This document shows positions 3,680-31,658 of a DNA stretch of 64,000 nt, piece after piece; the first letter of the stretch is position 1, and every line of letters starts with the position of its first letter. The notes below the pieces were generated by a model that was not told where the DNA came from, searched no databases, and saw only the letters and a list, made by a program, of their open reading frames with translations. The stretch is from NCBI GenBank assembly GCA_018396535.1, contig JAGTQC010000001.1, forward strand, positions 32,001 to 96,000, read 5' to 3'. The translations under genes were made by a program, and so were the position numbers. This stretch comes from Candidatus Bathyarchaeota archaeon. GTDB taxonomy: Archaea > Thermoproteota > CALKCG01 > B24 > DRYS01.

Positions 3680-4918
3680 ATGGCTAATATCAGATTCTAT
3701 GGTGGAGTAGATGGGTGTATAGGTGGGAATCAGATAGTATTAGAGGATGATAGCGCAACGCTACTCCTAGATTTCGGTTTAAACTATCGTATATGGTCCA
3801 GCTATTTCGAATTCATATTCTCAGAACCTGAGAGTATAGATGAAGTTATTCGTGTAGGCTTAGCTCCTGATAACCGTATACTAAGCTCTATAGATGCATG
3901 CATTCTATCCCATGCTCATACCGATCACTGGCGTCTAATAACGATACTACCTGAAGATACACGTATACTATTAGGGGAGTGCACCTACAGGATTATAGAA
4001 GGCTGGTCTAAACGAGTTAGGAGGAAAACGATACTATACCGTACATCTCATCTTAGATTCGATACATTCAGAACAGGATCCACTATAAGAATCGGGGATA
4101 TAGAGGTTAAACCTATAAGCGTGGATCATAGCATACCTGGAGCATACGGCTTCCATATATACACCCCATCAGGTTTGATAGTATATACAGGGGATTTCAG
4201 ACTTCACGGTAGGTTTAAGCCTAGGGTAGATCTATTCGAAGATTTAGAGGATAGGGTATCGCTACTCATATGCGAAGGAACGAATATAGGTAGACTCGTA
4301 GAGCCTATGAGTGAAAGCGATGTATACGCTAAAGCTTCGAGTATAGTAGAGGAGTGTAGAGGGCTTGTTGTAGTAGATATAGCTCCAGCAGATCTGGATA
4401 GGTTAAACACTATGATAGAGGTAGCCTATAGGGTGGGTAGGAGAGTCGTATGTAGCGATAGGATAATAGATACTATCACAGATCTATCAGGTGATAAGCT
4501 ACTTAAAGTTCCGAGGATAGGAGAGGATGTAGAACCGTTAGAGGATGTAGGGGATAGCTGTACACGCAACCCTGACAAGTATATGCTGATTACATGCTTA
4601 TATAGTGAGAGAGAGGTTAGGAGGATTAAACCTCCACCTGGGAGCATATATCTGCTAAGCTGTTCAGAACCCTTCGAGGAGGAGAGGGAGCTAGCGTTCA
4701 ACAGGCTATCCAACTGGCTATGTATATTCGGGGTATCGATGTACCATATACACTCATCTGGACACGCATACCCACTCGATATACGTAGGATAGTAGAGAG
4801 GATTAGACCTAAAGCCGTAGCCGCTATCCATACAGAGCATCCAGATACGTTTAGATACCTCCTATCCGATCTAACCAGAGTTTACACCTTTAGAAGAGGT
4901 GATGAACTTAGGATCTAG
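3680..4918 (+). CDS. MBL-fold beta-CASP hydrolase (RNase J-like)
   Basis: LLDFG, HAHTDH, VDHS, YTGDFR and HSSGH motifs. Confidence 0.8.
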   Translation: MANIRFYGGVDGCIGGNQIVLEDDSATLLLDFGLNYRIWSSYFEFIFSEPESIDEVIRVGLAPDNRILSSIDACILSHAHTDHWRLITILPEDTRILLGECTYRIIEGWSKRVRRKTILYRTSHLRFDTFRTGSTIRIGDIEVKPISVDHSIPGAYGFHIYTPSGLIVYTGDFRLHGRFKPRVDLFEDLEDRVSLLICEGTNIGRLVEPMSESDVYAKASSIVEECRGLVVVDIAPADLDRLNTMIEVAYRVGRRVVCSDRIIDTITDLSGDKLLKVPRIGEDVEPLEDVGDSCTRNPDKYMLITCLYSEREVRRIKPPPGSIYLLSCSEPFEEERELAFNRLSNWLCIFGVSMYHIHSSGHAYPLDIRRIVERIRPKAVAAIHTEHPDTFRYLLSDLTRVYTFRRGDELRI

Positions 4919-5559
4919 AACTCCATAAGGTATGGTAGTATCGATCTAAGATCAGCAGATTCCACTACTACATCAGCTACCTTCCTCACAGCTTCTACCT
5001 TAGGATTGAAGGCTATCCTAAACCCTGCCTCCTCGAATAGAGAGATATCGCTTATATCATCACCTACAGCTGCTACAGCACCTCTATCGATACATAGAAA
5101 CTCCATGAACGATCTCAGTATCCTACCCTTATCACCTATACCAACCCTAACCTCTATACCACCAGTAAGTATACCATCCACGACTACCAGCCTATTAGCT
5201 ATAGCGTAATCTACACCTAACCTACGCGCAGCTATATCTGCAAGCTCCTGTAAACCCGCACTTATAATCAGCGTTCTAACACCAGCACTTCTCAAAGCAT
5301 CCATAACGTATTCAGCTCCATCCACATACTCTATCTCAGATAAAGCCTCCATAACATCCTTCGCAGGTATACCACGCCATAAGCTTGTATCTAGCCTAGC
5401 CCACTCCTCGTAGCTTATACACCCCCTGAAGAATAGGTCAGCGTTAACCCTAGCCTTCCCGATAGTACCAAACCTAGTATGCAGATACTCCCATACACTT
5501 GTAATCCTAGTTAAAGTTCCATCCAGATCGAATGCTACTAGTTTAAACCTAGATTTCAC
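4915..5559 (-). CDS. HAD-IB phosphatase (phosphoserine phosphatase-like)
   Basis: AFDLDGTL, ISAG, K, GDDISD and IAFNPK motifs. Confidence 0.8.
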   Translation of the reverse strand: MKSRFKLVAFDLDGTLTRITSVWEYLHTRFGTIGKARVNADLFFRGCISYEEWARLDTSLWRGIPAKDVMEALSEIEYVDGAEYVMDALRSAGVRTLIISAGLQELADIAARRLGVDYAIANRLVVVDGILTGGIEVRVGIGDKGRILRSFMEFLCIDRGAVAAVGDDISDISLFEEAGFRIAFNPKVEAVRKVADVVVESADLRSILPYLMEF

Positions 5560-5620
5560 AAAACTTACAAGTATCTAGGAAGACTTTAAGTTTAGCTATA
5601 GGGGTGTGGAGGTAGCATAG

Positions 5621-6614
5621 ATGTTTAGAGAACCTATAGTAGCCGTTACACACGGAGAGTCTCTCTGAGAGACCCGAATACTGTGACGGCGTATGCTCAG
5701 CAGCTATACTGAAGAGAAGTATGAGAGTGGATACTATACGTATATCTACACCTACAAGTCTATGTAGAATACTGAAATCGCTAGCTTCTATAAACCCGTC
5801 GACCATAGTTATATGCGATATAGCTGTCGATACAGGCTACATGAACGAGCTTATAGATCTGATCAGAAACATATCCTCTAGATGCTTCATATACTATATA
5901 GATCATCATCCACCACCCGCAGGATTCCCCCCACCCGGCATAGATCAATTCAAGTACATATACAGGTCGGGTGTATCAGCCTCCCAGCTTGTATACGAAG
6001 CTATAGGTAGATCCGATGATAGGATATCCAGAATCCTTATGGCCTACGGAGCTATAGGCGATATGTGCGATGAATCCCAGCTAGTTAGGGATGTATTAAG
6101 CCTATGGGATAGACGGCTCATATACCTAGAAGCAGGCTTCATAACCGAGGGGCTGATATCTAGGAGAGATGAGAAATTCATATACGAGCTAATAGATAGG
6201 CTAGCTCAAGGTAATCCACCTAGTAGTATACCGGAGCTAGTATCCAGCTGTCTTAAAACCCTGAGCGACGAGTACAAGGTGTATAAGTATGTAGAGGAAA
6301 ACGTTAACGTAAGAGGTAGGATAGCTATCGTAACTAAGATACCTATAAGAGGCTTCGGAGGTAAAGCTGCAAACTATGCTCTAGCATATACCAGAGCTGA
6401 TGTAGCTATAGCTATAACTATAAGCGGTGGTACAGCTCATATGAGTTTAAGAAGTAGGAATCCAAGAATAGATCTAAACGATCTAACACGTAGATTATCC
6501 ACAGCTCTAGGAGGATACGGTGGGGGGCATCCTCAATCAGCTGCAGCAAGGATACCAGCTTCAAGAATAGAGGAGTTCCTCATGTTTATGGAGATAGCTC
6601 TACAAGGATTATGA
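5621..6614 (+). CDS. DHH/DHHA1 family phosphoesterase, intron-containing (exons 5621-5657 and 5680-6614; 323 aa spliced)
   Basis: SD GGAGGT before ATG5621; spliced N-terminus MFREPIVAVTHGDCDGVCSAAIL restores motif I; downstream ICD, IDHH, GAIGD, SLRS and GGGHPQSA motifs. Confidence 0.88.
5658..5679 (+). other. Predicted 22-nt BHB-like mRNA intron in the DHH gene
   Basis: Inner stem GTCTCT/AGAGAC, bulges AGA and ATA; contains in-frame TGA at 5666; removal restores frame and the HGDxDG motif. Confidence 0.8.
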
Positions 6615-6690
6615 GAACCTCGATATCTAACCCTACAAGCTAAACCTTAATATGTAAGTACATCTTGAGCATCCTATGGCGGTGGGATAG

Positions 6691-7788
6691 ATGAAGGTAA
6701 CTATATCCGTTATAAAAGCAGATGTAGGATCCCTAGCAGGACACCACATAGTATACCAGGAGCAGATAGATCTCGCAAAGAAGATGCTACAGAAAGCTAA
6801 GGATGAAGGCCTACTCATAGACTACTACGTATTCAACGCTGGAGATGACCTAGAACTCGTTATGACTCATACTAGAGGAGAATCCAGCCCTGAGATACAC
6901 GGCTTAGCTTGGAATGTATTCAAGGAGGTGACAGAGAAGGTTTCACGTCCTAGAAAGCTGTATGCAGCTGGTCAAGATCTACTAAGCGAAGCATTCTCTG
7001 GTAATGTTAAAGGTATGGGTCCAGGCGTAGCCGAGATGGAGATAGAGGAGAGGAGGAGTGAACCTATAATAGTCTTTGCCGCAGATAAGACGGAGCCCGG
7101 AGCCTGGAATCTACCTCTATACAGGATGTTCGCAGATCCATGGAATACAGCTGGTCTAGTTATAGATCCATCCATGCATCAAGGCTTCGTATTCAGGGTT
7201 ATGGATGTGGTCGAAGGCAAGACCATAGATTTGAAGACTCCTGAAGAAGCATACGATCTACTAGCTCTAATAGGTACTACAGGAAGATATATCGTAGAGA
7301 GGGTTTACAGAGCTGACGGGCTTCTAGCAGCAGTAGCTAGCGTAACTAGGCTAAGCCTCATAGCAGGTAGGTATGTAGGTAAGGATGATCCTGTATGTAT
7401 AGTTAGATGCCAGCATGGCCTACCAGCAGTCGGTGAAGCCTTAGCCCCATTCTTCACACCACACTTCGTAGCAGGGTGGATGAGGGGGTCACACTACGGT
7501 CCATTAATGCCTGTAGGCTTGAAGGATAGTAGATGCTCATTCTTCGATGGGCCGCCTAGAGTCGTAGCGTTAGGATTCCAGCTAGCTGAAGGTAAGCTAA
7601 TAGGACCAGCAGATCTATTCGATGATGTAGCATTCGACCATTCAAGAAGGATAGCACTCCAGATGGCAGAATTAATAAGAAGAAACGGGCCTATAGCACC
7701 AGCTATACTAGGACCAGAGGAACTAGAGTACACGGGTATAAAGGAGACTCTACAGAGACTAGCATCTAGATTCAAAGAGGCTAAGTAG
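6691..7788 (+). CDS. fbp: Bifunctional fructose-1,6-bisphosphate aldolase/phosphatase (class V)
   Basis: IKADVGS, GDD, LYAAGQDLL, DKTEPGAWN, YVGKDDP and GWMRGSH motifs. Confidence 0.96.
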   Translation: MKVTISVIKADVGSLAGHHIVYQEQIDLAKKMLQKAKDEGLLIDYYVFNAGDDLELVMTHTRGESSPEIHGLAWNVFKEVTEKVSRPRKLYAAGQDLLSEAFSGNVKGMGPGVAEMEIEERRSEPIIVFAADKTEPGAWNLPLYRMFADPWNTAGLVIDPSMHQGFVFRVMDVVEGKTIDLKTPEEAYDLLALIGTTGRYIVERVYRADGLLAAVASVTRLSLIAGRYVGKDDPVCIVRCQHGLPAVGEALAPFFTPHFVAGWMRGSHYGPLMPVGLKDSRCSFFDGPPRVVALGFQLAEGKLIGPADLFDDVAFDHSRRIALQMAELIRRNGPIAPAILGPEELEYTGIKETLQRLASRFKEAK

Positions 7789-30640: not shown

Positions 30641-31658
30641 TTAACTTCTACACCTCCATGGAGCGTTAAGAGGGAGTTCATATATAGGGAGACACCGTAT
30701 ACCGATGGAAGGTATGGGTGTAGACCTGATAGAAGACCTATCGATAAACTACTAGAGTATGGAGTGATACTACTCGATAAACCATCAGGCCCTACCAGTC
30801 ATGATGTAACAGCGCTTATCAGGAGGATAGTTGAAGCTAAGAAAGCTGGTCATGGCGGAACCCTAGAAGTCTAGATCTATAAGGGATCTAGACTGGGGAT
30901 ATCCAGCTGTTACAGGTGTTCTACCTATAACTCTGAATAATGCTGTTAAGATAGTTAGAGTTCTACTTAGCGGTGGTAAGGAGTATGTAGGCGTCATGAG
31001 GCTTCATGGAGATGTATCTAGGGATAAGATTAAATCATGCTTCGATATGTTCCAGGGAGAGATATATCAGAAGCCTCCTGTTAGATCATCTGTTAAGAGG
31101 AGGCTTAGAACTAGGCGTATATACTATCTGGAGCTTCTAGAGATCGATGGACGTGATGTACTGTTTCGTGTAGGCTGCGAGGCTGGGACGTATATAAGAA
31201 AGCTATGCTATGATATAGGCGAGATACTCGGCTGCGGTGCTCATATGAAGGAGCTTAGACGTACACGTGTTTCTACATTCACAGAGGATGAATGTGTACG
31301 TGTAGATGATATATTCGATGCTTACATGAGCTGGAAGGAGTCTGGGGATGAATCTATGCTTAGAAGGATTGTTAGACCTATGGAGGATGCTCTAACTATA
31401 CTACCTCAAGTTATCGTTAAGGATACGGCTGTCGAAGCTATATGTAATGGGGCAGATCTAGCGGTACCTGGTATAGTAGCATTCACAGGGGATATAAGAG
31501 AGGGGAGTCTTGTAGCTATACTAACGGTTAAAGGTGAGGGTGTAGCTTTAGGTTTAGCTCAGCTATCTGCGGAGAAGCTTCTAGAGAAGGAGAAGGGGAT
31601 AGCTGTTAAAACTGAGAGGGTTCTCATGCAGCCTGGTACCTATCCTAGGGTATGGTAA
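30641..31658 (+). CDS. cbf5: H/ACA pseudouridine synthase Cbf5, intron-containing (exons ~30641-30866 and 30901-31658; start codon uncertain)
   Basis: Exon 1 [10 protein letters not shown]...KAGHGGTL; the spliced junction gives [12 protein letters not shown]; PUA domain at the C-terminus. Confidence 0.93.
30867..30900 (+). other. 34-nt BHB intron in cbf5
   Basis: Central CCCT/GGGG, bulges AGA and ATA, 10-bp inner stem AGTCTAGATC/GATCTAGACT; in-frame TAG at 30872; splits the catalytic Asp codon. Confidence 0.92.

Follow-up and report, generated by a model that had tools for sequence, protein, structure and literature searches.

A pre-mRNA intron in the cbf5 gene of Crenarchaeota was reportedly described by Watanabe et al. 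2002 and Yoshinari et al. 2006. The cbf5 intron is spliced in these organisms, and cbf5 has been named the sole archaeal coding sequence with an intron of the bulge-helix-bulge (BHB) type (Yokobori et al. 2009, PMC2738675). A BHB intron is also known from the HVO_1309 mRNA of Haloferax volcanii, where it lies in the 5' untranslated region (UTR) (Schwarz et al. 2020, PMC7714728), and a 2025 paper touches on mRNA splicing only through references to cbf5 (PMC12397907). A literature search for DHH or RecJ genes with introns returned nothing relevant. Here we describe a 22-nt insert in a DHH-family phosphoesterase gene of an uncultured hot-spring archaeon, Candidatus Bathyarchaeota archaeon, found in a 64,000-nt stretch of contig JAGTQC010000001.1 (positions 32,001 to 96,000), which we refer to in full as the window. 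From comparison of sequences we consider it highly likely that this insert is a BHB-type pre-mRNA intron that would be removed from the DHH mRNA.

Results

A split motif I codon in a DHH gene

Mechanical gene finding starts this gene at ATG 5721 and yields an open reading frame (ORF) of 297 aa that matches only DHHA1 in Pfam (44.8 bits). Motifs II to IV of the DHH superfamily (ICDIA, IDHH, and GGGH, respectively) all lie in exon 2, and motif I (DxD) is present only after splicing in silico, as HGDCDG. The frame that opens at ATG 5621 reads MFREPIVAVTHGESL and stops at TGA 5666-5668, inside the insert. Deletion of 5658-5679 joins CAC GGA G to AC TGT GAC GGC and thereby rebuilds both the Asp codon and motif I (THG-D-CDG); because both boundary bases are A, deletion of 5659-5680 would yield the identical mRNA. 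The joined reading ...THGDCDGVCSAAILKRS-MRVD... is in frame with ATG 5721, and the predicted spliced product, MFREPIVAVTHG-D-CDGVCSAAIL..., is 323 aa long. The split residue is the first Asp of motif I, which we take to be catalytic or metal-binding.

Uninterrupted orthologs of this gene are of similar size (321-329 aa), begin 3-10 residues before THGDCDG, match both DHHA1 and, starting at residue 2-3, Pfam DHH, and are similar to archaeal RecJ/GAN structures. Scored with a local profile hidden Markov model of 19 uninterrupted orthologs, the predicted spliced product reaches 303 bits and aligns from profile position 4, compared with 264 bits and an alignment from position 28 for the ORF that begins at ATG 5721. 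All NCBIfam RecJ models score far under their own cut-offs. Judged by motifs I-IV, the predicted protein is a RecJ-like DHH/DHHA1 phosphoesterase of the DHH superfamily. The genome contains no intact paralog of this DHH subfamily, and the insert is single-copy in it (G000).

The insert is predicted to fold as a relaxed bulge-helix-bulge

In the standard archaeal BHB, the end of the 5' exon pairs with the intron's 3' end to give the central helix, and each bulge is cut between its second and third bases. Applied in silico to the DHH insert, this rule places the cuts at 5657|5658 and 5679|5680, the same boundaries as those demanded by the protein alignment. The unconstrained minimum-energy fold of 5640-5692 has an energy of -22.5 kcal/mol (z = -3.95), and none of 200 shuffles folds as well. 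Both flanking helices are present, a 9-bp helix between the two exons and a 6-bp hairpin within the intron, and the insert is of the relaxed hBHBh' form (coordinates in Table 1). In the window copy the 3' bulge (AUA) is part of a 2x5 internal loop and is clean only if the C.C and A.A mismatches are taken as stacked. All sequence variants found among relatives fold, again unconstrained, into the identical topology.

An earlier note on this locus, made from the letters alone, had already proposed much of this anatomy. Its ATG 5621 with a preceding Shine-Dalgarno sequence, its stop at TGA 5666, and the restoration of the frame by removal of exactly 5658-5679 are confirmed to the base, and the DHHA1-only match and the late start of the profile alignment bear out its remark that the ORF at 5721 is without DHH motif I. 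The unconstrained fold reproduces the boundaries that it had equated with cuts after the second base of the bulges AG|A and AT|A, and the stem GTCTCT/AGAGAC and the relaxed CGG/CCG central helix with an A.A mismatch are both seen in the minimum-energy structure. The outer helix that it placed beyond the C.C mismatch is likewise there, though longer than the 6 bp that it noted.

The insert recurs at the same codon in three lineages

The intron-bearing loci come from the 6 genomes that make up two families, from 6 metagenome contigs, and from 4 contigs, reached through public protein clusters, in Logan assemblies of public sequencing runs. Relatives are present in runs SRR24907187, SRR14241346, SRR8554431, and SRR14702244. 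All three genomes of the window's family (G000, G001, G002), together with contigs L036-L038, L118, and L119, carry a 22-nt insert. The insert is 27 nt long in one genome of a second family, f2 (G003), and 30 nt in the two others (G006, G009), making three of three, with 27 or 30 nt in contigs L039-L041, and a third lineage, known from contigs L116 and L117 and 53% identical to the window's protein, has one of 19 nt. In every member of these three lineages the insert lies between the first and second bases of the same Asp codon. The codon is uninterrupted in the 8 genomes of family f3, in the sole complete copy from family f4 (G005), and in more distant orthologs from Thermoproteota. A scan of metagenome contigs recovered 80 orthologous loci, 6 with the insert (two of them new sequence variants) and 74 without it. 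The insert is thus present on many independent contigs and in many samples, and is therefore not an assembly artefact.

Excision by the BHB rule restores CAYGGAG|AYTGY in all four length classes, and the predicted junction, CAYGGAGACTGY, is the uninterrupted sequence of the intronless orthologs. The inserts of 19 and 22 nt shift the frame, and those of 27 and 30 nt keep it but hold one or two in-frame stops. An ATG stands 12-18 codons 5' of the split codon in six of the six intron-bearing genomes. In the third lineage (L116:490-560, + strand, and L117) the codon aligned with the exon-1 ATG is CTG (LFEKPVVAVTHG, compared with MFREPIVAVTHG in the window), and the sole canonical in-frame start is a GTG five codons after that CTG, which suggests either a non-canonical start or an exon 1 of 7 codons in this lineage.

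A wider search with the pattern CAYNNNG-N15-35-AYTGYGAYGGNRTNTGY covered the 16-genome class of the organism and 384 other sampled Thermoproteota genomes. It recovered all six known cases within the class and gave 7 matches in the 384 other genomes: one is an uninterrupted DHH gene, and the remaining six do not match the query protein. The most intron-like of these six falls within an unrelated gene of the opposite strand. In the taxonomy used, the organism's order has the same membership as its class, 16 species genomes, which makes it a small and separate lineage of Thermoproteota at class level; the NCBI labels of its congeneric metagenome-assembled genomes (MAGs) are Bathyarchaeia or Bathyarchaeota, with one 'Nitrososphaerota'.

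Compensatory changes preserve the helices

We aligned 10 distinct sequences. Standard pairs fill 88.2% of the cells in the proposed helices, compared with 32-40% once the 3' strands are shifted 1-3 columns out of register. Changes on both sides are seen in 8 of the 19 pairs, and the covariation score was reached by none of 500 shuffles. In the outer helix 95.6% of cells are paired, with two fully compensatory pairs, one G-C to A-U and the other A-U to G-C. The central helix shows a compensatory C-G to U-A change in which a synonymous substitution in the His codon is matched by a change in the intron, and in the hairpin relatives show two-sided changes at five of the six pairs. All 10 sequences have AGA as their 5' bulge; the 3' bulge is AUA in the window and AGA in the nine others. 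L116 and G003 have a perfect 4-bp central helix (ACGG/CCGU and AUGG/CCAU, respectively), which leaves the C.C mismatch as the only one there.

A control compared pairing in the outer helix between genes that have the insert and genes that do not: 8 or 9 of its nine positions are paired in 8 distinct intron-bearing sequences, whereas the same nine positions in 74 distinct intronless orthologs pair at a mean of 5.4, with a maximum of 8 that only two of them reach. The exon-exon helix is specific to intron-bearing genes.

These data bear on translational recoding without splicing, by programmed frameshift, stop readthrough, or the ribosome hopping known from phage T4 gene 60. A GGA Gly codon is followed here by a stop codon and a hairpin, much as at the gene 60 take-off site, and G006, G009, and L041 have a second GGA just 5' of exon 2. 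No single event fits all lineages, however, as the 19- and 22-nt inserts would need a frameshift, whereas in those of 27 and 30 nt one or two stops would have to be read through. The products of frameshifting or readthrough would be without the first Asp of DxD, the GGA landing codon is missing in the window, the rest of its family, G003, and L116, and both the exon-exon and the central helices would go unexplained. We consider recoding highly improbable; hopping of the gene 60 kind was rejected as a candidate on finding matching take-off and landing codons only in the three f2 sequences just named.

Both exons are under purifying selection

Within each family the spliced coding sequence has a ratio of nonsynonymous to synonymous substitution rates (dN/dS) of 0.10-0.16 at a dS of 0.7-1.2, and synonymous sites are saturated between families. 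All five variable sites of exon 1 are synonymous among three congeners. The start codon of the downstream frame is not kept, being ATG, TTG, or GTG at differing places among relatives, and the residues encoded from the insert up to ATG 5721 (CDGVCSAAIL...) show conservation at the protein level. Purifying selection acts on both exons, and from these data it follows that, for the whole time that the insert has existed, the gene has been functional, with translation of exon 1 in its own frame. They exclude a pseudogene and make a truncated product unlikely.

A pseudogene born of a small insertion, or an error of sequencing or assembly, would be the usual reading of a frame-breaking 22-nt insert in a single MAG. 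This insert has persisted to 40% protein identity and saturated synonymous sites, with a dN/dS of 0.10-0.16 on both of its sides; it occurs in every member of the clades, on many independent contigs from different samples, and no intact paralog of the subfamily exists in the genome. We regard such an explanation as extremely unlikely.

A retained insert, with the downstream ORF from ATG 5721 as a functional product without motif I and the 12 upstream codons as a remnant or a small upstream ORF, agrees with what every public gene call reports. That ORF keeps motifs II-IV and matches DHHA1, as noted above. The proposal fits poorly with a start codon conserved in neither kind nor position, with the conservation as protein of residues encoded 5' of ATG 5721, and with exon 1, whose ATG and HG-D-CDG codons are kept in a different frame and vary among congeners at synonymous sites only; it also leaves the covarying BHB unexplained. 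We therefore find it very unlikely that the downstream ORF is the functional product.

Among 5.8 billion clustered proteins, we looked at the listed members of the 8 clusters closest to this gene. All 27 listed calls in the window's clade (clusters P0001-P0008) are N-terminally truncated, at 192-305 aa with DHHA1 only, and neither the spliced form nor the exon-1 N-terminus occurs in any of the 27. They are named 'DHHA1 domain-containing protein', 'DHH family phosphoesterase', 'RecJ-like exonuclease', or 'single-stranded DNA-specific DHH superfamily exonuclease'. These truncated calls are a systematic annotation error caused by the intron.

Predicted splicing machinery and a cbf5 intron in the same genome

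The genome encodes two EndA paralogs above the PF01974 cut-off and an RtcB ligase (596 bits). Their complementary matches (Table 1) imply an enzyme of the (alpha-beta)2 type, which would presumably be active, and a two-subunit EndA arrangement accepts relaxed motifs (PMC5829648).

The same window also holds the cbf5 gene, about 25 kb downstream of the DHH gene, and mechanical ORF finding recovers only its last 220 aa. Its intron splits the catalytic Asp codon at phase 1 and agrees with the DHH intron in both bulges and phase. Relatives have the cbf5 intron too, at 33-34 nt in G001 and G002 and at 20 nt in family f2. The DHH intron falls outside the cbf5 intron family by its host gene, and the hairpin sequences of the two are unrelated in congeners. 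A derivation of one from the other was considered and rejected: the GUCU...AGAC that they share in the window is absent from the congeners' cbf5 introns and was treated as coincidence.

Table 1. Coordinates of the DHH gene, its predicted intron, and related features (window positions unless a contig is named)
Feature	Position	Strand	Description
TATA-like box TTTAAG	5586-5591		upstream of the DHH gene start; putative function
Shine-Dalgarno-like GGAGGT	5608-5613	+	7 nt 5' of ATG 5621; read from the sequence, function putative
Exon 1 (predicted)	5621-5657	+	ATG and 11 codons (MFREPIVAVTHG), then G, base 1 of the split Asp codon
Outer exon-exon helix, 5' strand	5642-5650	+	GCCGUUACA; 9 bp with 5682-5690
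Central helix, 5' strand	5652-5655	+	ACGG against CCGA at 5674-5677; three Watson-Crick pairs and an A.A mismatch
5' bulge AGA	5656-5658	+	clean 3-nt bulge; predicted cut after 5657
Intron (predicted)	5658-5679	+	22 nt: base 3 of the 5' bulge, 6-bp hairpin with 3-nt loop, CCGA strand, bases 1-2 of the 3' bulge
Intron hairpin GUCUCU-CUG-AGAGAC	5659-5673	+	6 bp, 3-nt loop
3' bulge AUA	5678-5680	+	predicted cut after 5679; adjoins the C5651.C5681 mismatch
Exon 2 (predicted)	5680-6614	+	AC of the Asp codon, CDGVCSAAIL..., motif III (IDHH), DHHA1 GGGH motif, stop codon
Outer exon-exon helix, 3' strand	5682-5690	+	UGUGACGGC; the Cys-Asp-Gly codons of motif I
cbf5 intron	30860-30893	+	34 nt, hBHBh', after GHGGTL-G; CCCU/GGGG central helix, 11-bp hairpin, bulges AGA and AUA
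EndA paralog 1	G000:C2:6210-6773 (L033:1222-1785)		187 aa; catalytic residues Tyr/His/Lys kept; matches the C-terminal repeat of fused EndA models
EndA paralog 2	G000:C1:182214-182783 (L034:1249-1818)		189 aa; without the His; matches the N-terminal repeat and, weakly, beta-subunit models

Gene order around the DHH gene is kept in the window (3680-7788) and in L116, L118, and L119, with a divergent HAD-family hydrolase gene upstream and a class V fructose-1,6-bisphosphate (FBP) aldolase/phosphatase gene downstream. In the window a metallo-beta-lactamase/beta-CASP-like gene lies further upstream.

Discussion

Taken together, position, structure, the exon-exon helix, selection, the encoded machinery, and the cbf5 comparator all favor the view, put forward in the earlier note, that the insert is a BHB-type intron. 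The conserved BHB-forming insert that the note had suggested looking for among orthologs is found at the same codon position in three lineages, and its expectation that the gene would be invisible to standard gene callers matches the truncation of every listed call. Its further claim, of a second spliced protein-coding gene beyond cbf5, holds against the searchable literature, with splicing of the DHH mRNA itself a prediction.

We propose that the codons on both sides of the insert pair in the pre-mRNA to form the outer helix, that the central helix arises from pairing of the final exon 1 bases with the intron's 3' end, and that the intron core forms the hairpin. An endonuclease of the (alpha-beta)2 type would then cleave each 3-nt bulge between its second and third bases (5657|5658 and 5679|5680), and RtcB would join the exons to CACGGAG-ACUGUGAC, restoring the GAC codon and the frame. 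RtcB would probably also circularize the 22-mer. From unspliced RNA, by comparison, the only possible products would be a peptide of 15 residues or a protein that is truncated at its N terminus and has no motif I. Cleavage, ligation, and a dependence of enzyme activity on splicing are what we would expect from the locus and its predicted machinery.

The BHB could alternatively serve mainly as a regulatory switch on nuclease expression, with EndA cutting it as a signal for mRNA processing or decay and ligation inefficient or conditional. The 5' UTR intron of Haloferax HVO_1309 does affect expression (PMC7714728), and the DHH element lies near the start codon, where ribosome traffic could modulate folding. 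The exact restoration of codon and frame in four length classes argues, against this, that selection sees the ligated product, and a mainly regulatory function seems to us to have only a slender chance of being correct. Such a role is a refinement of splicing, not an exclusive rival to it.

Several observations weigh against splicing as we propose it. The covariation stands on about three independent lineages and not on ten, so that its statistics overstate independence. The window's 3' splice site is not a clean 3-nt bulge, being flanked by A.A and C.C mismatches, and cleavage at this relaxed site would require an enzyme of the broad-specificity type, an activity that we only predict for the EndA pair. 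The start codon and the intron are 37 nt apart, so folding could face competition from ribosomes. Among public gene calls there is no spliced full-length protein or junction-bearing sequence, and the metagenome contig scan for these clades found intron-bearing DNA only. Lastly, the relaxed BHB shape is almost as common in shuffled sequence, and the fold alone proves nothing: a descriptor that asked for at least 3 of 4 pairs in the central helix, a hairpin of at least 5 bp, at least 7 of 8 pairs in the outer helix, and an intron of 12-120 nt gave 2179 matches in the whole genome (G000) and 1865 in the block-shuffled genome. As a test of enrichment this genome-wide scan was discarded as uninformative without protein homology, since even a filter that kept only sites whose removal merges ORFs leaves 368 candidates. 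Motif-only hunts for mRNA introns in this genome would drown in chance matches. The DHH insert differs in that its boundaries were fixed independently by the protein alignment; at a chance rate of about 7e-6 per site and length, a relaxed BHB lying exactly on those boundaries is very unlikely to be fortuitous.

The f2 insert is flanked by a direct repeat, CGGAGA, perfect in G006, G009, and L041 as CA-CGGAGA-[24 nt]-CGGAGA-CTG (L004:1408-1450), and this repeat supplies both AGA bulges and most of the central helix. Elsewhere the repeat is degenerate (the two copies lie at 5652-5658 and 5674-5680 of the window), reading CGTAGA in L116, CGAAGA in most of the window's family, and CGAATA in the window; uninterrupted orthologs have exactly one copy, in CAYGGAGACTG. 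AG|AY is the exon context in both the cbf5 and the DHH gene, in each case with a catalytic Asp codon split at phase 1. The repeat pattern raises the idea that the intron arose by a small insertion that duplicated a 6-bp target, which we offer tentatively and consider rather unlikely, and the direct repeat could also follow from a near-palindromic central helix with identical bulges. If the idea were true, BHB mRNA introns would come ready-made from target-site-duplicating insertion at AG^A and be kept since EndA and RtcB remove them. A mobile element with a multi-copy family was rejected, the intron being single-copy in G000 and G006. The gene tree supports the class-level clade at 95/100 and does not resolve the order of the four families, so a single gain and a gain followed by losses are indistinguishable.

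The DHH intron very probably adds a second gene family to cbf5 among archaeal coding sequences with BHB introns. A second, unrelated gene whose intron has been kept in three lineages to synonymous saturation would show that mRNA splicing by EndA and RtcB is not a peculiarity of one gene, that such introns can persist for long periods, and that BHB introns in mRNA extend beyond the classical Crenarchaeota. Of practical concern, standard gene callers would systematically miss genes of this kind and return calls without the catalytic motif. The four length variants, together with the relative that has a perfect central helix, would provide a series of substrates for probing the tolerance of broad-specificity EndA.

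The DHH intron has features in common with several described systems. The eukaryotic splicing of HAC1 and XBP1 by IRE1 and RtcB is likewise independent of the spliceosome and removes a short, frame-changing mRNA intron with RtcB-type ligation; the endonuclease is another one, the motif is a twin stem-loop, and the process is stress-regulated, and we imply no homology. The relaxed introns of archaeal pre-tRNAs (hBH or HBh', cut by (alpha-beta)2 or epsilon2 EndA; PMC5829648, PMC12397907) would share with the DHH intron the same predicted enzymes, the cut geometry, and the tolerance of an imperfect second bulge, whereas the DHH substrate is an mRNA and its outer helix is made of codons and not of a tRNA stem. 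The HVO_1309 transcript (PMC7714728) is, as we propose for DHH, an mRNA on which the tRNA splicing endonuclease acts beyond its tRNA and rRNA targets, but its intron lies in an untranslated leader of a euryarchaeon with a homodimeric enzyme and splits no codon, whereas the DHH intron must go for the protein to be made.

The closest parallel is the cbf5 intron itself (PMC2738675). The two host genes are unrelated, a pseudouridine synthase and a DHH/DHHA1 phosphoesterase; the cbf5 intron is known from Crenarchaeota, where its splicing has been shown, whereas the DHH intron, with splicing predicted, belongs to a 16-species class of Thermoproteota, is shorter (19-30 nt, compared with 34 nt for cbf5 in the window), and lies only 12 codons into its gene. 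In both genes, a short BHB intron sits in the coding sequence between bases 1 and 2 of a catalytic Asp codon, varies in length and is sometimes a multiple of three, occurs in hosts with a two-subunit EndA, and has a patchy distribution suggesting gain and loss; within the window's own genome, the two introns have identical bulges, AG|A and AU|A.

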